64,000 nt of DNA, from contig NZ_PZOX01000005.1 in NCBI RefSeq assembly GCF_003044305.1, positions 579,493 to 643,492 of the forward strand, given 5' to 3'. The DNA comes from Vitiosangium sp. GDMCC 1.1324. Its GTDB lineage: Bacteria; Myxococcota; Myxococcia; Myxococcales; Myxococcaceae. A program made the position numbers and the translations under genes. The notes under the pieces are model-generated. The model was given only the letters and a program-made list of their open reading frames with translations. It did not search any database and was not told the DNA's origin. Of the stretch, positions 53,582 through 64,000 are shown piece after piece. Positions within the stretch are counted from its first letter, which is position 1. Every line of letters begins with the position of its first letter.

Positions 53582-55228
53582 GTGTCCTCTACTCGCATGC
53601 GCTCCCATCCCCTGGCCTCGCAGCTCTCCCCGCTCCTCGCCCTCCTGATACTGAGTGGCTGTAACACCGCCTACCGGGAGGCCCTCTCCCAGGCCAAGGA
53701 GGCGGCCGCTCGCGGCGACTTCATGACCGCCGCCCGCGCCTACCGCTCGGCCTGCGCCGCCTCTCCCGATGACGAGGTGGCCTGTACGCGCGTCCCCATC
53801 TTCGCGGAGAAGGCGACGACCCAGGCCATCGCGGCCGCTCGCCCGCCGTGCGAATCGGGTGACCTCGACCGGTGCATCCCGCCCCTGCTCGACTCCCTGG
53901 ACCTCATCCCCCAGCACCCCGAGGCCACCGCGATGCTGGAGAAGGCCAGCCAGCTCCACACGGAGCGCTGCACCAGCAAGTGGAAGGCCGAGGGCTCGCT
54001 GAACACGGAGGTGGCCGGACTGGCCTGCCTGCAGTCCCGTGGCCACCAGTTCCGACTGCCGAGCTACCAGGCGCTCCTCTCCGAGCGCGCCACCCGGCTG
54101 GCCTCGCGCTTCGCCGAGCTCGCCACCACCGCGCGAAACAAGGGGACTCCGGGGGCCGCCGCCGTGCTGTGGTCCACCGCGCAGTGCCTCGCGCCGGACC
54201 CGGGCACCCTCGCGTGGAGCCAGCAGACCTACCAGGAGTTCCTCACCCAGAGCGCCATTCCCGTGGCCACCCGCCTTGACGGCTCGATCGCGCCCCAGGT
54301 CGCCTCGGGGCTCACCGGCCTGTGCCAGCGCCTGTCCTCGGGACTGCCTCCCTGGGCGCGGTGCGCGGAGGCCGGAACGGTGCCGGGCCAGCCGATGCCG
54401 CTTGAGCTCCAGGTGGACGCCATCATCCAGCGTGTCGTGGAGAACGTCAGCGAGGACCTGCGCAGCGTGAACTACATCAGTGGCACGCGGCGCGTGCGCA
54501 ACCCTGCCTACCACACGGCCGAGGAGCGCCTCGAGCACGCCGAGCGCTCGTACCGGAGGGCCGACAAGATGAGGAACTACAGGGACGAGGCGTGCGACAA
54601 GGAGAAGAAGACGCACGATGCGGGCTGCGTCGGGTGCACCGACCCCAACGACAAGAACAACAAGAATAAGAAGACCGCCTGCGACGAGGCCCGGGAGCTC
54701 CACGCGGCCTACGACAGCGCGGCGCAAGAGCTCGGCGCGGCGCGCACGAACCTGTCCAACACGCCCGAGTTCATGGTTGAGGAAGTGCACGACACGTTCA
54801 CCTACTCCGTGCTGACCCATCGCTGGTCGTCGGGCTTCCGCTTCACGCTCCAGACGAACACCCCGGGCGCTCCCGCTCCCGCGCCGCAACAGGGAGAGCT
54901 GCGCTTCCAGGACCAGGAGCATGTGGGCTTCAGCCCGGCTAAAATCCAGGCGGATCCGCTGGAGGTCCCGAACCCCTGGGCCTATTCGGATGCCTTCCTC
55001 CGGGAGCTGGCGCCCCACGTGTTCGCGGCGGTGCAGCAGGACGGCAGGGTCCGGGGCGCCCAGCGCCGCACCCAGTGCGCCGAGCTGCCGGCGAACTGGA
55101 GCACCCCCTGGGTGCAGTGCTGGGCCGAGGCCACGCTCTGGGAGGGCGGCCAGGAGCCCCAGCCGAATGGGTTCCTCCAGCTCCTGGCCAGCAACGCTGG
55201 CGCGTCCGAACAACCCATGTGCCGCTGA
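53582..55228 (+). CDS. secreted Cys-rich lipoprotein, hypothetical
   Basis: Lipobox LLILSGC (the start may be the MRSHPL ATG five codons in). At least 16 Cys. Lys/Asn-rich patch DKEKKTHDAGCVGCTDPNDKNNKNKKTACDE. Confidence 0.6.
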   Translation: MSSTRMRSHPLASQLSPLLALLILSGCNTAYREALSQAKEAAARGDFMTAARAYRSACAASPDDEVACTRVPIFAEKATTQAIAAARPPCESGDLDRCIPPLLDSLDLIPQHPEATAMLEKASQLHTERCTSKWKAEGSLNTEVAGLACLQSRGHQFRLPSYQALLSERATRLASRFAELATTARNKGTPGAAAVLWSTAQCLAPDPGTLAWSQQTYQEFLTQSAIPVATRLDGSIAPQVASGLTGLCQRLSSGLPPWARCAEAGTVPGQPMPLELQVDAIIQRVVENVSEDLRSVNYISGTRRVRNPAYHTAEERLEHAERSYRRADKMRNYRDEACDKEKKTHDAGCVGCTDPNDKNNKNKKTACDEARELHAAYDSAAQELGAARTNLSNTPEFMVEEVHDTFTYSVLTHRWSSGFRFTLQTNTPGAPAPAPQQGELRFQDQEHVGFSPAKIQADPLEVPNPWAYSDAFLRELAPHVFAAVQQDGRVRGAQRRTQCAELPANWSTPWVQCWAEATLWEGGQEPQPNGFLQLLASNAGASEQPMCR

Positions 55229-55250: not shown

Positions 55251-55799
55251 TCAGCCCGGCTCCAGCGCGCCGACCACCTCCGCCAGACAGTGCGGGCAGG
55301 CGGCACGTCCCTGAACCATGGACCTGCCGCACCCCGCGCACCGCACCATGCTAGGCAGGCGGCAGGCCCCGTCTTCCGGGGCACACTTCGGAACATCGGG
55401 GGCTCCGGCCTGCTCCAGGTCCCTCCGTACGACTTCGTCCTCCAGGTGCAGCCAGTCGGACAACCGGCGGCGGTTGTTGGAGAGCAGCTCGAAGGCGTTG
55501 CGCGCGAGCGGCATCAACGAGGGCCGGGACAACCGCTGTGCCCACGCCCGGTAGTCCTCCAGCGCCCACAGCACCATCAGCCACGCGTGGGTGTCCCGGT
55601 AGACGCCACCCTCGTCGTCCACCACCACGAGCTCCTCCGGGCCCGCCGAGCGGCGCAGCCCGGGAAAACGTCTCGCCGCCTCCTCGCTCCCAGCCGGGAG
55701 GCACTCGAGCCCCACCAGCGTGCGCTGCACCCCCAGCCACCGGGCACAGCCCACACAGAAGCCACACGTCTCGTCATACAGCACGCAGAGGGCACGCAT
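55251..55799 (-). CDS. thiol-disulfide oxidoreductase DCC-family (DUF393) protein
   Basis: MRALCVLYDETCGFCVGCARWL is the DCC motif. The ORF opens at 55811. Confidence 0.7.
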   Translation of the reverse strand: MRALCVLYDETCGFCVGCARWLGVQRTLVGLECLPAGSEEAARRFPGLRRSAGPEELVVVDDEGGVYRDTHAWLMVLWALEDYRAWAQRLSRPSLMPLARNAFELLSNNRRRLSDWLHLEDEVVRRDLEQAGAPDVPKCAPEDGACRLPSMVRCAGCGRSMVQGRAACPHCLAEVVGALEPG

Positions 55800-55807
55800 G
55801 GCTCGCC

Positions 55808-56266
55808 TCACACCCCCTCGGCCACAGGAGCCGGCTGCGGAGAAACCCGGGTGAACTCGCGCGGCAGCACGGGCGGCGGCTGCTGGCGCATCTGGCCCGA
55901 GCGGCGGATGCGATTGAAGACGTACAGGTTGAAGAAGTGCATCGCCCCCAGCACGACCATCACCTTGCCCACCTTGCCGCAGACCAGCTCGATGACCTCC
56001 TGCACCGTCCAGATGGTCTGGTACTCCTTGAGCGACAGGGCAACGTACCCGATGTTCATCAGGTAGAAGCCCACCACCAGCAGGTGGTTCACCGAATCCG
56101 CCAGCCGCTCCTTGCCCAGGAAGGCATCGTGCAGGAAGTGCGAGCCGTTGCGTTGCAGCGTCTTCGCCACCCAGATCGTCAGCGTGATGCTCACGAGCAG
56201 GTAGAGCAGGTAGGCAGCCACCATGAACTGGCTCGACACGGGGGTCACCAGCGCGTTGGGTTCCAT
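55808..56266 (-). CDS. small integral membrane protein
   Basis: 152 aa; four TM helices. Stop/start overlap with the downstream DCC gene. Confidence 0.55.
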   Translation of the reverse strand: MEPNALVTPVSSQFMVAAYLLYLLVSITLTIWVAKTLQRNGSHFLHDAFLGKERLADSVNHLLVVGFYLMNIGYVALSLKEYQTIWTVQEVIELVCGKVGKVMVVLGAMHFFNLYVFNRIRRSGQMRQQPPPVLPREFTRVSPQPAPVAEGV

Positions 56267-56421
56267 GACTCGTCTCCCTCGGAGAGCGCGGCCGCCCGGG
56301 GCTCCAGTGCCCCTCCTGGGTTGGCGCCGCCCTCCCCTTTCATCAGGGAGTACCGGAAGGAATTTTCGCGGTTGCGGGGTGCCCGCTCATTCACACGGCC
56401 CGGATGTAGGCAGGGTATCGG

Positions 56422-57096
56422 TCACATGCTCGCGGCTCGGAGCTTCGCGATCCACTCCCGGATTTCCTCATTGGTCCTCCGAGCCGCGACTCCCTCCTGG
56501 AACATCAGGAAGTCGAAACGACCTTCCACGATCATGCCCATCAGCGCCCGGTCGGCGGCGATGATCTCCGGCACCTCCCAGGGAAAGACGGGCCATGTAC
56601 CGCGATCCTCACTGAAATCGGGCATCTCGTAGATGAACTCCAGATAGCGGGCGTAGGTGTCGAAGAATCGGTCCACATTGGAGGCAATGGGGAGTGCGTA
56701 GATGTCTTCGTAGGGGTCGACCTTGACGACCGGTTGGAGGCCCTGTGCATCGGCCAGGCTCGGCACCGTGGCGTAGCAATAGGACGAGGCATCCCGGCAT
56801 CCAAAGATGAGAAGGGATCGGAAGGGCTCGGGCCAGTAGGGCTGAATCTCCTCGTTCGCCATGAGGATTCCATTCACCTGCTCATCACAGGGTTCCACAA
56901 GAAGATCGAAGTCGAGATAAAGCCCGCCCAGTCGCGAATAGAAGGTCGCCAGCATCGGGTCGAAGGGTCGGCCCAGGAGTCGCGTGCCCGCGGTTGGTGC
57001 ACCTTCCCAGGGTTTTCGAATCTCGGCTCGGATGGGGTACTTCCCGCAGGCTGCCAGCAGCCTCTCGAGTCCAGGCAATGACATTTCGTTCATCAT
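56422..57096 (-). CDS. candidate immunity protein B' (cytoplasmic, ~224 aa), paralogue of 58929..59603
   Basis: ATG-ATG at 57096/57093 (MMNEMSLPGLERLL...), 14 nt downstream of the A' stop. No signal peptide; acidic. About 89% identical to B, with substitutions clustered at aa 50-100. Loose SUKH/SMI1-like pattern (LP..L....G..P, FY.RLGG). Confidence 0.55.
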   Translation of the reverse strand: MMNEMSLPGLERLLAACGKYPIRAEIRKPWEGAPTAGTRLLGRPFDPMLATFYSRLGGLYLDFDLLVEPCDEQVNGILMANEEIQPYWPEPFRSLLIFGCRDASSYCYATVPSLADAQGLQPVVKVDPYEDIYALPIASNVDRFFDTYARYLEFIYEMPDFSEDRGTWPVFPWEVPEIIAADRALMGMIVEGRFDFLMFQEGVAARRTNEEIREWIAKLRAASM

Positions 57097-57110
57097 GCGC
57101 CTCTTTCGTC

Positions 57111-58805
57111 TCACCTCGCGACCAGGGCACGGACATCAGCCAGCGCCGCCGCTGTAGCCCTTTCGAGCAGAGCGTCTGACTGGCTCGGCTCGTAGACCTT
57201 GTTGAACCAACGCTCGAAGTGCCGCCGGGTGACGGCCGCTATCTGCTGAACCTGCTCGGGACTGGCCTTGTCGCCAGCCTCCATACGAAAGGCATTCCAC
57301 ACTCTGTTGATACCCTCATGAACGGGCTTTCCCAGTGCCTTGAGGTTGGCAGCAGCGTTGATGTCCAACTCGGGGAAGAGGTGGGCATACTCCAGGGGAA
57401 TGAGGTGGTGGACGTCGTATCGTCCCCAGGCGCCTCGAAGCACTCCATTCAGTTCAGGATAGAAGACCCCATAGAAATCGTCTTGAGCCTTGGCCCTGAG
57501 CGCATCCTTGGCCTTCTTGTCCAATTTGACGGTGAGCGACTGCTCCATGCGCCGCAGGAGTTGGGTGAGTTCGTTGCGCTCGGCGGCGGAGAGGCATTCG
57601 AAGCCCTCCGTCTCCACCTTCACGAAGAGCCGCCGCAACAGTTCCTGGTCCGCGCGCCCCGCCCGAACGAGTTGCGTGCGCAACCAGCGCATCCCCGCGG
57701 CGCCTCCCCGGGTCGCCACCCGCATCACCGAGGGCGCCACCGCTTCGAAGGCGACGTGCAGGCCCTTGCCCACCAGTCCCCCGATAACGCATAGGGCCAC
57801 CTGCTCCAAGGTGAAGGCGCCCGCCAGCTTCACCGAGTCCACCATCTCCTCACGGTAGTGGTGGAAGATTTGTGCGTGCAGCAGGCGGTACTCGCGCAGC
57901 ACGTCCTCTCCCGCTTCATCCACCGGCTCCGGCCGGAGCGTCTCCGCCCGCTCCACCCTCCAGTGGGAGGTGGCGCTCGTCCCTCCGTGCATCCCGGACA
58001 GTTCCAGCCGCACAGTGCGTGGGCCCAGTCCGCGCATGAAGGGCAACAGGGTCAGGGTGAGTGCCTCGGCCACCCGAGCGTCCGCTGGGCGCACCGTGCC
58101 ACCTCCAGCGGCGTGGTAGGGCCCCATCTCCCAGCCCGTGAGCCGGTCGTCCTCCAGCGAGAGCTCCACCCTCATGCGCGCCGAAGCACCCGCGGGCACC
58201 TGGAGCAGGCGCACCACCTGCTTCGCCATGGCCTGCACGGCGGAGAGCGCCCTGGACGAATAGCCCGTGCGCCGCGCTGGCAGCTTTCTCGCCTCCGGGG
58301 GCGCATCCATGGGGAGTGCCTCATAATCCACCCGCCAGCGGCTCTGCTCCCGGTGCAATGTGAAGCCGAGGGCACCTGTACGAGTCTCGGCGAGCGTGAA
58401 GAGCAACTCTCGCAGCCCGCCCGTGAACGCCTCCGCCTTCGTCGGCTGGCCCGCCTCTCCTCCAACCGCCCTCCGACGGACGGACAGCAGCGTGAGGGCC
58501 CCACGCTCGGCCCAGAAGGTGAACTCCAGTACCGAGCCCACCTGCCCCTCTCCGCTGGCCACTGCCCACATCTGCCCCAGCGCCCACTCGACCTCGGCCC
58601 TCCGAGCCCCGGCTTCCTCAACCCATTCGTCAGCGGATGGCGAGGCGCTCGGGTTCGCGGAGACGAGGGTGGCCTCGCTTGGAAACGACGCACTGGCCGG
58701 CAGGGCGAATCCTCTCCCGTTCTCGTGCTGTGTCGTGGCGCACCCCTGCACCATCAGCATCGCGAGCCCCACCGCCACGGCCCGCCAGCACGCCCTGCGC
58801 GTCAT
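57111..58805 (-). CDS. lipoprotein with C-terminal HNH/EndoVII-like nuclease domain (candidate polymorphic toxin A')
   Basis: 564 aa. MTRRACWRAVAVGLAMLMVQGC is a lipoprotein signal. Last ~130 aa: ...RYDVHHLIPLEYAHLFPELDINAAANLKALGKPVHEG... has HH, Asn and His spaced as in the HNH/EndoVII fold (AHH/GHH/SHH-type toxin nucleases). The N-terminal 427 aa are ~99% identical to the paralogue; the C-terminus ~77%. Confidence 0.65.
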   Translation of the reverse strand: MTRRACWRAVAVGLAMLMVQGCATTQHENGRGFALPASASFPSEATLVSANPSASPSADEWVEEAGARRAEVEWALGQMWAVASGEGQVGSVLEFTFWAERGALTLLSVRRRAVGGEAGQPTKAEAFTGGLRELLFTLAETRTGALGFTLHREQSRWRVDYEALPMDAPPEARKLPARRTGYSSRALSAVQAMAKQVVRLLQVPAGASARMRVELSLEDDRLTGWEMGPYHAAGGGTVRPADARVAEALTLTLLPFMRGLGPRTVRLELSGMHGGTSATSHWRVERAETLRPEPVDEAGEDVLREYRLLHAQIFHHYREEMVDSVKLAGAFTLEQVALCVIGGLVGKGLHVAFEAVAPSVMRVATRGGAAGMRWLRTQLVRAGRADQELLRRLFVKVETEGFECLSAAERNELTQLLRRMEQSLTVKLDKKAKDALRAKAQDDFYGVFYPELNGVLRGAWGRYDVHHLIPLEYAHLFPELDINAAANLKALGKPVHEGINRVWNAFRMEAGDKASPEQVQQIAAVTRRHFERWFNKVYEPSQSDALLERATAAALADVRALVAR

Positions 58806-58817
58806 CGAGGATTCCCT

Positions 58818-58898
58818 TCAGGGCTGCCAGCGCCACAGGTAGAGGCCGAACTCGAGCACCGGGGTGTCAGCATCAGGGCGAGCCTGACCTATATCACC
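58818..58898 (-). pseudogene. frameshifted 3' fragment of the Ser/Thr kinase gene carried along by the duplication
   Basis: Aligns to kinase codons for ...LMLTPPVLEFGLYLWRWQP* (61328..61403) with a 1-nt deletion (ggggtg vs ggcggcg) and substitutions. Lies between A' and B. Confidence 0.75.
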
Positions 58899-58928
58899 GG
58901 CTCGCGGGAGAGTTGGGCAGAGTATCCG

Positions 58929-59603
58929 TTACGTGCTCGCGGCCCGGAGCTTCGCGATCCACTCCCGGATTTCCTCGTTGACCCTCCGAGCCGCGACGCC
59001 CTCCTGGAACATCAGGAAGTCGAAACGACCTTCCACGATCATGCCCATCAGCGCCCGGTCAGCGGCGATGATCTCCGGCACCCCCCAGGGAAAGGTGGGC
59101 CATGTACCGCGATCCTCAGAGAAATCGGGCATCTCGTAGATGAACTCCAGATAGCGGGCGTAGGTGTCGAAGAAGCGGTCCACATTGGAGGCAACGGGGA
59201 GTGCGTAGATGTCTTCGTAGGGGTCGACCTCGACGACCGGTTGGAAGCCCTGTGCATCCGCCAGGCTCGGAACCGTGGCGTAGCAATAGGCTGACGCCTC
59301 TTCGCCCCCGAAGACGAGAAGCGACCGGAAGGGCTCGGGCCAGTAGGGCTGAACCTCCTCGTTCGCCATGAGGATGCCATTCACCTGTTCATCACAAGCA
59401 TTGACATAGAGGTTGAGGTCGAGCAGGAGCCCACCCAGTCGTGAATAGAAGGCGGCCAGCATCGGGTCAAAGGGTCGGCCCAGGAGTAGCGCGCCCGCGG
59501 TTGGTGCACCTTCCCAGGGTTTTCGAATCTCGGCTCGGACGGGGTACTTCCCGCAGGCCGCCAGCAGCCGCTCGAGTCCAGGCAATGAGATTTCTTTCAT
59601 CAT
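58929..59603 (-). CDS. candidate immunity protein B (cytoplasmic, ~224 aa)
   Basis: ATG-ATG at 59603/59600 (MMKEISLPGLERLL...), 15 nt after the A stop and preceded by gagggaagag. The ORF extension to 59717 is rejected because it overlaps A. Confidence 0.55.
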   Translation of the reverse strand: MMKEISLPGLERLLAACGKYPVRAEIRKPWEGAPTAGALLLGRPFDPMLAAFYSRLGGLLLDLNLYVNACDEQVNGILMANEEVQPYWPEPFRSLLVFGGEEASAYCYATVPSLADAQGFQPVVEVDPYEDIYALPVASNVDRFFDTYARYLEFIYEMPDFSEDRGTWPTFPWGVPEIIAADRALMGMIVEGRFDFLMFQEGVAARRVNEEIREWIAKLRAAST

Positions 59604-59617
59604 GTGTCTCTTCCCTC

Positions 59618-61315
59618 TCACCTTACAACCAGGGCACTGACATCCTCCAGCGCCGCCGCCGTGACCCTTTCGAGCAGAGCGTCTGACTGGCTCGGCTCGT
59701 AGAGTTTGTTGAACCAACGCCCGAAATGTCGCTGGGTGATGTCCACCATCTGTCGAACCTGTTCGGGACTGGCCGTGTCACCCGCTTCCTTGCGGAAGGC
59801 ATTCCATATCTTGTTGATACTCCCATGAACGGGCTTGCCTAAGGCCTTGAGGTTGGCGGCAGCGTTGATGTCCAACTGCGGAAACAGGTGGGCATACTCC
59901 AGGGGGACAAGGTGATGGACGTCGTATTGTTTTCCCTCAACGTCCCTCAATACCCTCTCCAGCTCGGGATGGAAGGCCCCGTAGAAATCAGCTTTAGCCT
60001 TGGCACGAAGCGCGTTCTTGGCATCACGGTCCAATTTGACGGTGAGCGACTGCTCCATGCGCCGCAGGAGTTGGGTGAGTTCGTTGCGCTCGGCGGCGGA
60101 GAGGCATTCGAAGCCCTCCGTCTCCACCTTCACGAAGAGCCGCCGCAACAGTTCCTGATCCGCGCGCCCCGCCCGGACGAGTTGTGTGCGCAACCAGCGC
60201 ATCCCCGCGGCGCCTCCCCGGGTTGCCACCCGCATCACCGAGGGCGCCACCGCTTCGAAGGCGACGTGCAGGCCCTTGCCCACCAGTCCCCCGATAACGC
60301 ATAGGGCCACCTGCTCCAAGGTGAAGGCGCCCGCCAGCTTCACCGAGTCCACCATCTCCTCACGGTAGTGGTGGAAGATTTGTGCGTGCAGCAGGCGGTA
60401 CTCGCGCAGCACGTCCTCCACTGCTTCGTCCACCGGCTCCGGCCGGAGCGTCTCCGCCCGCTCCACCCTCCAGTGGGAGGTGGTGCTCGTCCCTCCGTGC
60501 ATCCCGGACAGTTCCAGCCGCACAGTGCGTGGGCCCAGTCCGCGCATGAAGGGCAACAGGGTCAGGGTGAGTGCCTCGGCCACCCGAGCGTCCGCTGGGC
60601 GCACCGTGCCACCTCCAGCGGCGTGGTAGGGCCCCATCTCCCAGCCCGTGAGCCGGTCGTCCTCCAGCGAGAGCTCCACCCTCATGCGCGCCGAAGCACC
60701 CGCGGGCACCTGGAGCAGGCGCACCACCTGCTTCGCCATGGCCTGCACGGCGGAGAGCGCCCTGGACGAATAGCCCGTGCGCCGCGCCGGCAGCTTTCTC
60801 GTCTCCGGGGGCGCATCCATGGGGAGCGCCTCATAATCCACCCGCCAGCGGCTCTGCTCCCGGTGCAATGTGAAGCCGAGGGCACCTGTACGAGTCTCGG
60901 CGAGCGTGAAGAGCAACTCTCGCAGCCCGCCCGTGAACGCCTCCGCCTTCGTCGGCTGGCCCACCTCTCCTCCAACCGCCCTCCGACGGACGGACAGCAG
61001 CGTGAGGGCCCCACGCTCGGCCCAGAAGGTGAACTCCAGTACCGAGCCCACCTGCCCCTCTCCGCTGGCCACTGCCCACATCTGCCCCAGCGCCCACTCG
61101 ACCTCGGCCCTCCGAGCCCCGGCTTCCTCAACCCATTCGTCAGCGGATGGCGAGGCGCTCGGGTTCGCGGAGACGAGGGTGGCCTCGCTTGGAAACGACG
61201 CACTGGCCGGCAGGGCGAATCCTCTCCCGTTCTCGTGCTGTGTCGTGGCGCACCCCTGCACCATCAGCATCGCGAGCCCCACCGCCACGGCCCGCCAGCA
61301 CGCCCTGCGCGTCAT
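59618..61315 (-). CDS. lipoprotein with C-terminal HNH/EndoVII-like nuclease domain (candidate polymorphic toxin A)
   Basis: 565 aa. ATG at 61315 is 12 nt after the kinase stop, with an aagggaa RBS. The C-terminal domain ...QYDVHHLVPLEYAHLFPQLDINAAANLKALGKPVHGS... retains the HH / N / H residues but differs from A' at ~30 of 134 positions plus one indel. Coding GC is lower over 59620..60030. Confidence 0.65.
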   Translation of the reverse strand: MTRRACWRAVAVGLAMLMVQGCATTQHENGRGFALPASASFPSEATLVSANPSASPSADEWVEEAGARRAEVEWALGQMWAVASGEGQVGSVLEFTFWAERGALTLLSVRRRAVGGEVGQPTKAEAFTGGLRELLFTLAETRTGALGFTLHREQSRWRVDYEALPMDAPPETRKLPARRTGYSSRALSAVQAMAKQVVRLLQVPAGASARMRVELSLEDDRLTGWEMGPYHAAGGGTVRPADARVAEALTLTLLPFMRGLGPRTVRLELSGMHGGTSTTSHWRVERAETLRPEPVDEAVEDVLREYRLLHAQIFHHYREEMVDSVKLAGAFTLEQVALCVIGGLVGKGLHVAFEAVAPSVMRVATRGGAAGMRWLRTQLVRAGRADQELLRRLFVKVETEGFECLSAAERNELTQLLRRMEQSLTVKLDRDAKNALRAKAKADFYGAFHPELERVLRDVEGKQYDVHHLVPLEYAHLFPQLDINAAANLKALGKPVHGSINKIWNAFRKEAGDTASPEQVRQMVDITQRHFGRWFNKLYEPSQSDALLERVTAAALEDVSALVVR

Positions 61316-61327
61316 CGAGGATTCCCT

Positions 61328-62773
61328 TCAGGGTTGCCAGCGCCACAGGTAGAGGCCGAACTCAAGCACCGGCGGCGTCAGCATCAGAACGAGTCCGGCC
61401 CACACCACCGGCTCGCGGGAGAGTGGACGCTGGCGCCGCCACGCCTCCAGGGTCGAGACGCACAGAAGGTAGAGCGCCGACAGCTCCAGCAGCCCTCCCA
61501 CCAGCGGCATGAAGGGAGGCATCGAGATGCCCGCGCCCCACTCCAGCACGCCTCGCAGGGCGAACAGGCCCGAGCAGGCAATCGTCACCCCCAGGAAGGA
61601 CCGGCCCTCGTGCAGCGGCACCTCCGGCGCGGGCGCATCCAGTCCCTCGTGGCGCCAGTGTCTGCGCAACAAGCCATACGCCGCCAACGCCACCGCGAGC
61701 CCCGCCACCGCGCCGAGGATGGGGCCCGTCTCGAAGCGCGCCCGTGTCACCCACCGGCCATCCGCCAGTCTCGCCGCGGGCTGCATGGTGAGGGGATCCA
61801 ACTCGTGCGGGGCCAGCACCCGCGGCGTCACCGACACGACGAGCGCCCACAGCACCAGTGCGCACGCCACCGCCTGCAACACCGCCACCGCCCTCAGCCA
61901 GATGGCCTCGTCCGGAGGCAGGGCCGCCTCCGCCGCTCCGTCCGCGAGCCGCCGCAGGTCCAGGCCCAGTGCCTGCGCGCTCGCGTAGCGCCGTGACGGT
62001 TCGAGCGCCACCGCCCTGCGCACCATCGTCCCGAGCGCCCCCGTCAACGCGGGCGCCCCCGCCACCGGTGGCCGGCCCGTCACCATCTCGTGCAGCAGCA
62101 CCCCCACCGCGTACACGTCCATGCGCGGGTCCGGCGGCGCTCCGGCGAGGGCCTCGGGAGCCATGTACTCAGGCGTCCCCACCACCGCGTGCGCGGCGGT
62201 GAGCGTGTCTCTCGGCCCCTCCTGCCGGACGATGCGGGCAATCCCGAAGTCCGTCACCTTCACCCGGCCCTCTCCGTCCATCAGGATGTTGGCCGGCTTG
62301 ATGTCCCGATGCACCACGCCTCGCGCATGCGCGTAGGCCAGCGCGTCGCACACCTGGAGCGCCACGCGCACGGCCTCCGCCGGAGGCAACGGCAGTACCT
62401 GTGCCAGGGAGCGGCCCTCCACCAGCTCCATCACCAGGAAGCGCTCGCCCTCCTCGTCACCAAAGTCGTGCACCCGGACGATGTTCGGATGATCCAACAG
62501 TGCCAGGGCCCTCGCCTCCCGCGCGAAGCGGGCCTGCGCCTCGGCGCTCGAGGCGGCCTCCCCCGCGAGGAACTTCACCGCCACCGGCCGATCCAACCGC
62601 ACATGGCGCGCCCGGAAGACACGGCCCATGCCTCCCCGGCCGATCTCCTCCTCCAGCTCCAGCGAGCCGATGCGCCCCGGATCCTCCATGTCCTCTCCCA
62701 GGAGGCAGCCGGGACATACCGCCAGGCGCTGGCCATCCACGGGCGTTCCGCAGCGCGAGCAGCGGGCACTCAT
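61328..62773 (-). CDS. Ser/Thr protein kinase with N-terminal CxxC zinc-ribbon and C-terminal multi-TM region
   Basis: 481 aa. CSRCGTPV...CPGC; kinase subdomains GRGGMGRVFRA, VAVKFL, HRDIKPANIL, DFGIA, GTPEYMAPE. Four C-terminal hydrophobic helices. Its ATG overlaps the ECF sigma stop (ATGA). Confidence 0.9.
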   Translation of the reverse strand: MSARCSRCGTPVDGQRLAVCPGCLLGEDMEDPGRIGSLELEEEIGRGGMGRVFRARHVRLDRPVAVKFLAGEAASSAEAQARFAREARALALLDHPNIVRVHDFGDEEGERFLVMELVEGRSLAQVLPLPPAEAVRVALQVCDALAYAHARGVVHRDIKPANILMDGEGRVKVTDFGIARIVRQEGPRDTLTAAHAVVGTPEYMAPEALAGAPPDPRMDVYAVGVLLHEMVTGRPPVAGAPALTGALGTMVRRAVALEPSRRYASAQALGLDLRRLADGAAEAALPPDEAIWLRAVAVLQAVACALVLWALVVSVTPRVLAPHELDPLTMQPAARLADGRWVTRARFETGPILGAVAGLAVALAAYGLLRRHWRHEGLDAPAPEVPLHEGRSFLGVTIACSGLFALRGVLEWGAGISMPPFMPLVGGLLELSALYLLCVSTLEAWRRQRPLSREPVVWAGLVLMLTPPVLEFGLYLWRWQP

Positions 62774-63492
62774 CGCTTCAGCACCCGGAGCAGCTCGGCG
62801 AGCTCGGCCTCCGCCTCCTCCGGCCCTCCCACCGTGTCCGCCACTTCCTCGCGCACCAGCTCGCGGTAGCGCACCCGCGCCCGGTGCAGGAACGTCTTGA
62901 GCTGCGGCAGGGACATGCCGTGTGCCTCCGCCGCCTCCCGGTAGCTCGGCGGCTCACCCGGGCGGAAGAACTGGAGCACCAGGTCGAAGGGGCCCTTGCG
63001 CGCTCCACTGTCGTACTCGGCCTTCAGCCGCTCCAGGGCGCGCTCCATGACGCTCGAGGCCCATTCCCGCTCGAAGGCCTCGTCCGGGCCCTGGGCATCC
63101 TCGGAGGCAATCCGCTCCGCCAGCTCGAAGTCCAACGGCAGGGCCACCACGCCCCCTCCGCGCCGCGCGGCACTCTCCCGCTCGTAACGGTGGGCGAGGT
63201 GGTTGCGCGCGGCCGTCAGCAGGTAGCCCCGCAACCGGCCCTTCTCGGGGCTCAGCCGCTCGAGGAAGTCGTGCTCCAACAGCCGCACCAGCAAATCCTG
63301 CACGGCGTCGCGCGCGGGCTCCGCGTCCAGCCCCTGGCGGCGCATGAAGACGTAGAGAGGGCGCCAGTAGGTGCTCAGCAACGACTCGAGTGCCGCGCGG
63401 CGGGCCTCCGGCGATACCCGCGCCGAGCGGATGAGGGTCCAGCGCGTGGGTGGAAAGGAGCCCGGTCCTTCCTCTCGCGGATCTGCGCTCAT
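62770..63492 (-). CDS. ECF (group 4) RNA polymerase sigma factor
   Basis: ATG at 63492 (MSADPREEGPGSFPPTRWTLIRSA...). The ORF to 63642 is rejected. Sigma-70 region 2 (...LESLLSTYWRPLYVFMRRQGLDAEPARDAVQDLLVRLL...) and region 4 (...SYREAAEAHGMSLPQLKTFLHRARVRYRELV). Confidence 0.85.
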   Translation of the reverse strand: MSADPREEGPGSFPPTRWTLIRSARVSPEARRAALESLLSTYWRPLYVFMRRQGLDAEPARDAVQDLLVRLLEHDFLERLSPEKGRLRGYLLTAARNHLAHRYERESAARRGGGVVALPLDFELAERIASEDAQGPDEAFEREWASSVMERALERLKAEYDSGARKGPFDLVLQFFRPGEPPSYREAAEAHGMSLPQLKTFLHRARVRYRELVREEVADTVGGPEEAEAELAELLRVLKR

Positions 63493-63726
63493 GGAAGAGG
63501 TTCTAGCGCAAACAGGGGGAGTCCTTCCCGGGGGGCGGGCACCTGACCTCCAGTGCACATCTACTCCGGGCTCTGCTCGCTGCCGGACACGGCTCCTCCG
63601 CCCGCCGAAGCGGCGCATCCGTTTCACTGGAGGAAAAGGCACCAGCGCATTGCCCGGACACCTTCCGCTCTCTAGCTTCCCGCACCCGAAGCCACACCCC
63701 CAGTCGCAGTCACGCGAGGACGAACC

Positions 63727-64000
63727 ATGACCCCTGCCTCTCAGATGAGCATGCCGATGCAGCCCGGAATGAACCCGATGATGGGCGGCATGCCCATGAT
63801 GGGTATGAACCCGATGATGGGCATGAATCAGATGCCGATGATGGGCATGAACCCGATGATGGGCGGCATGCCCATGCCCATGCCCATGATGGGCGGCATG
63901 CCCATGCCGATGATGGGCATGAACCCGATGATGGGCGGCATGCCCATGCCGATGATGGGCATGAACCCGATGATGGGCGGCATGCCCATGATGATGCCCA
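63727..64000 (+). CDS. Met/Gly/Pro-rich repeat protein, 5' part (continues beyond window)
   Basis: ATG at 63727, 8 nt after gagga. MTPASQMSMPMQPGMNPMMGGMPMMGMNPMMGMNQMPMMGMNPMMGGMPMPMP... Strongly G/C-ending codons on the plus strand. The antisense His-rich frame has T-ending codons, so the plus frame is preferred. Absent from the ORF track because no stop lies inside the window. Confidence 0.6.
   Translation, partial: MTPASQMSMPMQPGMNPMMGGMPMMGMNPMMGMNQMPMMGMNPMMGGMPMPMPMMGGMPMPMMGMNPMMGGMPMPMMGMNPMMGGMPMMMP

Follow-up and report, generated by a model that had tools for sequence, protein, structure and literature searches.

A tandem array of lipoprotein and SUKH-fold protein genes in Vitiosangium sp. 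GDMCC 1.1324 as a candidate SitA/SitI-type toxin-immunity locus

The SitA toxins of myxobacteria are lipobox-bearing lipoproteins in which a family-specific escort domain of ~375 residues is followed by a C-terminal nuclease, with a sitI gene located downstream, and 25-80 such loci have been found per genome (PMC8546572). Six SitA families have been described, among which SitA4, SitA6 and SitA7 are non-modular nucleases, and sitB is present occasionally (PMC8546572); SitI1 belongs to the SUKH proteins, and sitB is missing beside many sitA genes (PMC5562445). Here we examined a 64,000-nucleotide stretch of the Vitiosangium sp. GDMCC 1.1324 genome (assembly GCF_003044305.1, contig NZ_PZOX01000005.1, positions 579,493 to 643,492; hereafter the window), in which two gene pairs, A1-B1 and A2-B2, lie in tandem. 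Each pair encodes a lipoprotein (A) with a predicted nuclease tip and an adjacent acidic protein (B) with a SUKH fold, and is probably a toxin-immunity cassette of the SitA/SitI kind. A lipoprotein signal, an HNH motif with its predicted topology, the SUKH fold of B, the linkage of B to A, the reuse of tip and body in other proteins, a multi-copy family and a gene conversion tract were all observed in silico. The SitA-like organisation of polymorphic toxin and cognate immunity gene that a preliminary description of this DNA had put forward was supported by this comparative and structural evidence.

The A-B array and its proteins

The array was found to be a direct repeat with a period of 2507-2511 nt and units at ~58916-61424 and ~56409-58915, in close agreement with the tandem units of ~2.49 kb first placed at 56411-61403. 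The two A proteins (565 and 564 residues) each carried the lipobox LMVQGC, and the start codon of B (224 residues) lay 14 nt after the stop codon of A in both pairs; the preliminary description, which had lipoproteins of ~565 residues with this lipobox and an acidic protein of ~224 residues starting 14-15 nt later, was correct on these points. A was basic (isoelectric point [pI] 8.6-8.8) and B was acidic (pI 4.45-4.5). A2 is identical to P0001, an NCBI entry from Vitiosangium sp. GDMCC 1.1324 that was recovered as a 93%-identical match in the search with A1, and B1 gave a 100% match to P0077 of the same strain. The features of the array are given below, with the evidence for each in parentheses.

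59618-61315, minus strand: A1, a 565-residue putative lipoprotein toxin with signal peptide, lipobox, tether, N-terminal body and HNH tip (open reading frame; homologues; AlphaFold2 model)
61250-61315, minus strand: type II signal peptide of A1 with lipobox LMVQGC, Cys22, and Ala at +2 (sequence; conservation of C22)
61145-61249, minus strand: disordered tether of A1, residues 23-57 (low predicted local distance difference test score [pLDDT]; least conserved region)
60047-61144, minus strand: N-terminal body or 'escort' region of A1, residues 58-423 (AlphaFold2 secondary structure; hydropathy)
59621-60046, minus strand: predicted HNH-type nuclease domain of A1, residues 424-565 (alignment with Rhs tips; weak HNH matches; predicted beta-beta-alpha)
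58929-59603, minus strand: B1, a 224-residue acidic cytoplasmic SUKH-fold putative immunity protein with an ATG start
58806-58913, minus strand: B1-A2 spacer with the remains of a second copy of the kinase-gene 3' end, a duplication scar (82% identity to 61316-61424)
57111-58805, minus strand: A2, a 564-residue second putative lipoprotein toxin, its first 424 residues homogenised with those of A1 and its diverged tip at 57114-57536 (open reading frame; comparison with A1)
56422-57096, minus strand: B2, a 224-residue second SUKH-fold putative immunity protein (89% identical to B1)

The N-terminus of A1 reads MTRRACWRAVAVGLAMLMVQGC followed by ATT, and Cys22 was kept in at least 90% of 40 homologues. 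The residue at +2 is Ala and not Lys, and this type II signal peptide is of the kind sorted to the outer membrane. In an AlphaFold2 model of A built on 40 homologues (pLDDT 84; predicted template modelling score 0.72), the signal helix ended in LMVQGC and was followed by the tether, where pLDDT fell below 50 over residues 20-55 and conservation was lowest. The body was modelled as two alpha/beta repeats (residues 58-165 and 184-290) and then a helical region (297-448). The helical part that belongs to the body (297-423) carried a conserved Gly-rich segment at ~328-362 (E..AL...GG...KG), which is moderately hydrophobic (Kyte-Doolittle up to 1.8) and might touch the membrane. Residues 58-423 were conserved across 97 genomic loci and 526 representative proteins. 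No match to this body of ~365 residues was found in Pfam, NCBIfam or PDB, and a PDB-sequence profile search with full-length A likewise gave no matches. The earlier remark that the N-terminal domain holds no motif that can be placed was thus borne out, with no match to a housekeeping family in these databases, and it is plausible that the body is a new escort domain.

The evidence for a nuclease resided in the C-terminal tip. In the AlphaFold2 model, two short strands (465-468 and 489-492) were followed by a long helix (494-514); strand 1 ended with H467-H468, strand 2 was preceded by N484 and N488, and H497 opened the helix. Residues 465-514 are accordingly predicted, on this model, to have a beta-beta-alpha-metal topology. 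Both array copies retained the HH...N...H residues. In a joint alignment of the tips of the lipoproteins and of Rhs proteins, H467, H468, L472, N484, H497 and W504 were invariant, and P471, E473, A475, H476 and N488 were nearly so (H476 and N488 in at least 90%). When the tip profile was compared with solved structures, the pyocin AP41 DNase, with E 0.023, came out best, ahead of a Cas8f-HNH fusion, with E 0.43, and the HH, N..N and H positions of the tip aligned in both. An hhalign comparison with the validated SitA6 toxin pMF1.20c also brought the HH, N and H positions into register (E 7e-4, probability 26%). Among 25 tips, weak Pfam matches were obtained for HNH_2 (5/25, best E 4e-4) and HNH (2/25), and none for AHH (0/25); A1 and A2 themselves were unmatched by Pfam AHH (PF14412), GHH, SHH, HNH (PF01844) and HNH_2 (PF13391) at E up to 1-10. 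These several weak, concordant matches suggest that the tip is an HNH-type nuclease domain. On this reading, the tip belongs to the HNH superfamily as a branch that has yet to be named, outside the Pfam toxin families. Of the original assignment, the HNH/EndoVII-type nuclease was retained, given the invariant HH/N/H residues and the alignment with AP41, whereas the resemblance to the AHH, GHH and SHH families was not, there being no Pfam match.

B is a SUKH protein by fold only, without a Pfam sequence match. The comparison with SUKH/SMI1 that had been suggested for B therefore came out positive at the level of fold and negative in Pfam, where neither B1 nor B2 was matched and where no match was precomputed for 120 listed of 291 B homologues. 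The NCBIfam scan of B gave a weak YrhA hint (E 0.07), and a PDB-sequence profile search with B gave no matches. Beyond the SUKH fold, B has an extra C-terminal helical extension at approximately residues 141-223. A B homologue was located directly after A in essentially all of the 78 GTDB species-genome loci with downstream sequence. Tandem extra B copies, in A-B-B and A-B-B-B arrangements, were frequent among these 78 loci, which also included A-B-A-B arrays, with three such units in A. violaceum Cb vi76, and several loci had a frameshifted A beside an intact B.

Divergence and gene conversion between the two copies

The two copies of the unit differ in sequence, and the spacer between B1 and A2 encodes ...LEFGLYLWRWQP followed by a stop, the decayed last codons of the upstream kinase gene. 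The presence of this kinase-gene remnant indicates that the array arose by tandem duplication in situ and is not an assembly artefact. A1 and A2 were 93% identical overall, with 4 substitutions in residues 1-428 (99.1% identity) and ~76% identity from residue 425; B1 and B2 were 89% identical and were most diverged in residues 57-125, and in A divergence was greatest in residues 425-465. These values reproduced the identities initially reported for the N-terminal region (~99%), the C-terminal domain (~77%) and B (~89%). At the DNA level, identity between the copies was 97-100% from ~61361 to 60042, then dropped abruptly to 62-88% through the tip, and ranged from 72% to 98% within B. Synonymous divergence (dS) was 0.027 for residues 1-428 of A and 0.65 for the tip overall (~0.8-1.2 for residues 429-520); for B, it was 0.50 in residues 57-125 and 0.08-0.12 in the rest of the protein.

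The ratio of nonsynonymous to synonymous divergence (dN/dS) was 0.09-0.51 in all regions of A and B that were compared, and positive selection on the tip or on B was not supported on this basis. Faster evolution of the tip as the cause of the contrast between the copies was rejected, given the dS of 0.027 in the one region against 0.65 in the other. These dS values instead indicate that the duplication is old and that the 5' 1.3 kb of the A genes was recently homogenised by gene conversion. The breakpoint in identity, at nt 60041 (approximately residue 425), coincides with the start of the homology to Rhs tips (profile positions 422-426). The conserved N-terminus with a variable tip, which had first been read as a sign of a polymorphic toxin in this pair, should therefore be attributed to gene conversion; moreover, the tip was never swapped anywhere in the family. 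The array would thus be an old tandem duplication in situ in which the 5' 1.3 kb of the A genes is held identical by conversion, and the diverged tip together with the central part of B would probably give two toxin/immunity specificities, which have likely been kept distinct on a shared delivery body.

Other arrays were compared in the same manner, and the pattern was seen again in two of them. Identities of body, tip and B were 94-97%, 79-85% and 83-87% in array L014, and 94%, 68% and 74% in array L038. In array L059, where the corresponding values were 88%, 86% and 89%, the contrast was absent.

Family, relatives with other leaders and genomic context

When the A profile was searched exhaustively against 1.84 billion representatives, 526 relatives were recovered. 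The family comprised 526 representative clusters for A and ~290 for B, all of them labelled 'hypothetical'; 76 close homologues of A1 were found, and a search with a Myxococcus member gave 122 matches. Among close homologues, the body had a mean pairwise identity of 0.71-0.83 and the tip one of 0.62-0.75. The lipoprotein members had one architecture throughout, with the tip never replaced, and this joint divergence of body and tip across the family indicates that the lipoprotein family is non-modular. Two apparent fusions, P0065 (VWA/DUF58) and P0067 (HisKA), were rejected as artefacts of gene calling or frameshift, the A part of each starting with its own lipobox.

The genera in which the lipoprotein form occurred were Archangium, Vitiosangium, Melittangium, Hyalangium, Corallococcus, Pyxidicoccus, Myxococcus and Citreicoccus. 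Multiple copies were present in the Archangium metagenome-assembled genome VAR_17 (at least 13 loci), SMAG_U11739 (10), A. lansingense (4) and A. minus (3), and the Vitiosangium genome under study had at least four A genes (A1, A2, P0408 and P0439); single loci were seen in Corallococcus, Pyxidicoccus, Myxococcus eversor and Citreicoccus. An A-B pair was also carried by a 3.8-kb contig binned as Actinomycetota (L046, JALZOQ010000196.1), which is probably a binning error, since all other loci of the lipoprotein form were myxobacterial. A universal upstream partner resembling SitB was searched for among the loci and not found; the search returned just synteny groups and one Corallococcus-specific secreted protein. 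A secreted protein of ~180-213 residues was encoded directly 5' of the A homologue at L030 (5144-5785), L034, L035, L039, L040 and L057. This upstream protein of the L030 type, seen in Corallococcus and Myxococcaceae loci, occupies the position of sitB in some sitBAI cassettes and had no NCBIfam match.

Parts of A also occurred in proteins of other kinds. One class of matches covered just profile positions ~422-538 and lay at the very C-terminal end of proteins that were short or fragmentary. Among these, P0314, P0334 and P0337 had an Rhs core motif and a PT-TG pre-toxin domain (PF14449), with the tip located just after PT-TG, and P0316 and P0320 showed the motif ...YDP..GRF..PD...; a gene for a Pfam SMI1_KNR4/SUKH protein came next after the Rhs protein P0337 (one locus). 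A second class was led at the N-terminus by eCIS_core (PF13699, formerly DUF4157), which has been described as a marker of toxins associated with extracellular contractile injection systems (eCIS), often with a long linker lying between it and the toxin (PMC8213781). The seven representatives of this class (P0216, P0219, P0221, P0228, P0229, P0234 and P0237; 643-919 residues) contained the whole body and tip, from profile positions ~24-66 (the start varies) to 565, and the match began where the disordered tether of the lipoprotein ends. The three complete downstream genes examined, those following P0216, P0229 and P0219, encoded clear B homologues (E values of 1e-42, 2e-34 and 1.5e-21 in this class), and a partial B match followed P0237, cut by the end of the contig. 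The contigs of this class had 42-66% G+C and their hosts were non-myxobacterial; two long ones, L085 (42% G+C) and L084 (62% G+C), showed proteobacteria-like neighbours, such as rib-nusB-thiL-pgpA and type IV pilus minor pilins, and no eCIS genes within 10 kb.

Two further proteins joined the body to other C-termini. In P0308 (L090), which starts with an eCIS_core leader, the alpha/beta-repeat half alone preceded a peptidoglycan amidase (Amidase_2), and in P0242 (L091) the full body was followed by an unrelated C-terminus. These proteins suggest that the alpha/beta and helical halves of the body are separable modules. In neither case was the next gene B-like; each was followed by a different small gene, whose product in the case of the amidase P0308 is small and has a signal or transmembrane segment. 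B tracked the tip and not the N-terminal body, since a SUKH gene followed the Rhs tip, B followed the eCIS_core versions, and no B-like gene accompanied the other C-termini.

In the window, the array was preceded by two genes of a putative signalling module:

62770-63642, minus strand: sigma factor of the extracytoplasmic function (ECF) type, 5' of the kinase gene (Pfam match)
61328-62773, minus strand: membrane Ser/Thr kinase with a C-terminal membrane region, directly 5' of A1 (Pfam match)

The start of A1 lay 12 nt after the stop codon of the kinase gene, and the toxin pair may be co-transcribed with the sigma factor-kinase module. The order sigma-kinase-A-B was common to Vitiosangium and several Archangium genomes; in Archangium lansingense, the order sigma-kinase-A-B-(155 residues)-DCC1-like was found with a single A-B pair. 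In the window, the array was followed by genes for a DCC1-like thiol-disulfide oxidoreductase, which ends in a zinc ribbon at its C-terminus, and for a 152-residue membrane protein (55251-56266, minus strand), and the DCC1-like protein and the small membrane protein kept the same position in A. lansingense. In Melittangium, an A-B pair was located between gcvP and leuS. The G+C content of the array (window 56000-60000) was 63-64% versus ~70% in the rest of the window, and third-position G+C was lower in A and B than in the neighbouring genes. A scan for promoters and terminators was uninformative.

Two other genes of the window were noted. A 548-residue lipoprotein encoded at 53582-55228 on the plus strand, ~1.2 kb from the array, gave a weak partial match to the NCBIfam TraC model NF040658 (E 1.3e-17; residues 7-328). 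Its score of 63.7 bits was far under the cut-off of 500, and its identification as a TraC orthologue was rejected; it may be a distant TraC paralogue, or the likeness may be confined to a repeat region. An open reading frame at 63727-64000 on the plus strand, which runs off the end of the window, encoded a Met/Pro/Gly-rich repeat protein (MPMMGMNPMMGGMPMPMP...) and corresponds to the direct repeat family D3.

Proposed function, alternatives and comparison with known systems

The following mechanism is proposed for the A-B pairs. A would be exported and lipidated at Cys22, and would be transferred to neighbouring myxobacterial cells during TraA/TraB outer-membrane exchange. The ~365-residue N-terminal body may then bring the C-terminal domain through the periplasm and past the inner membrane, and the predicted HNH-type (beta-beta-alpha-metal) nuclease would cut nucleic acid in the cytoplasm. 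In the producer and its clonemates, cytoplasmic SUKH-fold B would bind and neutralise the cognate tip. A broader reading, which we advance tentatively, is that A-B represents a seventh, unnamed SitA-type family, expanded in Archangiaceae, whose body is a portable cell-entry module that works independently of its leader. The leader would be a lipid anchor in myxobacteria and eCIS_core (DUF4157) in proteobacteria-like genomes, and the alpha/beta half of the body would be reusable with an amidase acting in the periplasm.

Several observations weigh against a SitA/SitI-type cassette. No family was matched at threshold when A, B, the paralogues and 40 + 25 members of the family were scanned with Pfam and NCBIfam, searches by structure that used the complete A model returned no nuclease and only unspecific helical matches, and no match that pointed to an HNH domain was strong alone. 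It is unusual for a mobile toxin cassette to follow genes for an ECF sigma factor and a kinase as if in one operon, as the orthologous locus does, and no relatives were found on viral contigs and plasmids. Moreover, the occurrence of the body behind eCIS_core leaders in non-myxobacteria indicates that the body is not specific to outer-membrane exchange. That the tip is a toxic DNase, that B neutralises it and does so specifically, that A reaches other cells by outer-membrane exchange and that the body serves in entry are all proposals made on in silico grounds.

The foremost alternative is that A-B is the already published, non-modular SitA4 or SitA7, in which case the mechanism would be the same and nothing would be new. 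The architecture of A would suit this, as SitA4, SitA6 and SitA7 are non-modular lipoprotein nucleases with an escort of ~375 residues and an occasional sitB (PMC8546572); many sitAI loci are known in Archangium genomes, and a Corallococcus subset of the loci described here has the conserved secreted protein directly 5' of A, in a SitB-like position. Against this stands the absence, among the homologues of A, of the species in which the published SitA families were defined and tested: no protein named as from M. xanthus, M. fulvus, M. stipitatus or M. macrosporus was present among the 76 + 122 homologues, and none of these species was represented among the 78 GTDB species-genome loci. SitA6 could be excluded directly. 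Its toxin and immunity proteins, pMF1.20c and pMF1.19c, correspond to DUF2380/TIGR02269 and Gmx_para_CXXCG/TIGR02264, with strong matches to those models, and neither A nor B matched these families; the likeness of the tips was confined to the motif, and identity with SitA6/SitI6 was accordingly rejected. In addition, none of the NCBIfam SitA6, SitI6 and TraC models matched A or B, and a tblastn search of A against plasmids, pMF1 included, gave no match. We therefore regard identity with SitA4 or SitA7 as unlikely and consider it likely that A-B is an additional, unnamed SitA-type family, the comparison with SitA4 and SitA7 being by description only.

A second alternative accepts a lipoprotein nuclease toxin with SUKH immunity and supposes that it acts on prey or non-kin through a route other than TraAB, such as outer-membrane vesicles or release during predation. 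Body and tip work with eCIS_core leaders outside myxobacteria, which suggests that no specific delivery route is needed; the window holds no traA, traB or sitB gene (the absence of a SitB-like gene had been noted at the outset), and nearby there is just the weakly TraC-like lipoprotein. The lipoprotein form of A was, however, found only in genera for most of which traAB has been reported (PMC6372800), and TraA dependence has held in these bacteria for each of the lipoprotein toxin families tested so far (PMC8546572). Furthermore, the family shows expansion into multiple alleles and orphan immunity genes, which are typical of kin-discrimination barcodes. Such a route is, in our judgement, improbable.

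A third alternative, in which A is a conserved lipoprotein of the envelope and B its partner, both with a housekeeping or signalling role under the adjacent ECF sigma factor and kinase and no toxin function, is very improbable: the 12-nt distance to the kinase gene, the shared sigma-kinase-A-B synteny and a dN/dS below 0.5 nearly throughout would suit such a role, but the pair occurs in unrelated contexts such as gcvP/leuS in Melittangium, is multi-copy with decayed A and orphan B copies, has the tip that ends Rhs/PT-TG toxins, and includes in B the fold of an immunity protein.

If a toxin-immunity cassette of the SitA/SitI kind is correct, it would provide a function for a family that is unannotated in databases, with a tip and a SUKH subfamily both outside Pfam and NCBIfam, and it would extend the lipoprotein toxin 'barcodes' of kin discrimination to Archangiaceae. 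The same body behind either a lipid anchor or an eCIS_core leader offers a direct way to ask what the escort does after delivery, at the crossing of the inner membrane. The array itself is a clean natural case of gene conversion halting at a toxin-domain boundary.

Compared with known systems, A-B fits every SitA feature that is testable in silico. It shares with SitA/SitI the lipobox, a family-specific N-terminal domain of several hundred residues, the C-terminal nuclease (here predicted), an adjacent downstream immunity gene, many divergent loci per genome, SUKH immunity as in SitI1, and the frequent absence of sitB. It differs in that its expansion is centred on Archangium and Vitiosangium, and in that its body has clear homologues outside Myxococcota, where none were found for SitA1-3 (PMC5562445). 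Rhs/YD-repeat PT-TG toxins share with A the HNH-type tip of ~110 residues, the motif IHHRIPLEWAHLFPDADPN..NL.....H..I..W..F and a downstream SUKH gene; they differ in delivery by the Rhs shell (type VI secretion system or secretion), in having neither a lipobox nor the ~365-residue N-terminal body, and in an immunity protein that is a Pfam-recognisable SMI1_KNR4 protein and not of the B subfamily. The eCIS_core-led toxins have a metallopeptidase-like DUF4157 leader where A has a lipoprotein signal. Pyocin AP41 and the colicin E-type HNH DNases share the HH...N...H beta-beta-alpha-metal motif, a target in the cytoplasm (predicted for A) and close linkage to an immunity gene, whereas the similarity is at the level of the motif only (E 0.023), their immunity proteins are four-helix proteins of the Im type and not SUKH proteins, and their uptake domains are different. 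YobL-YobK of Bacillus subtilis and other SUKH pairs had no significant sequence similarity to A-B, and B has the added C-terminal helices. A-B is thus probably an addition to a known kind of system and not a new kind; what goes beyond expectation is the reuse of body and nuclease behind eCIS_core leaders, and a conversion tract that ends at the boundary of the toxin domain.

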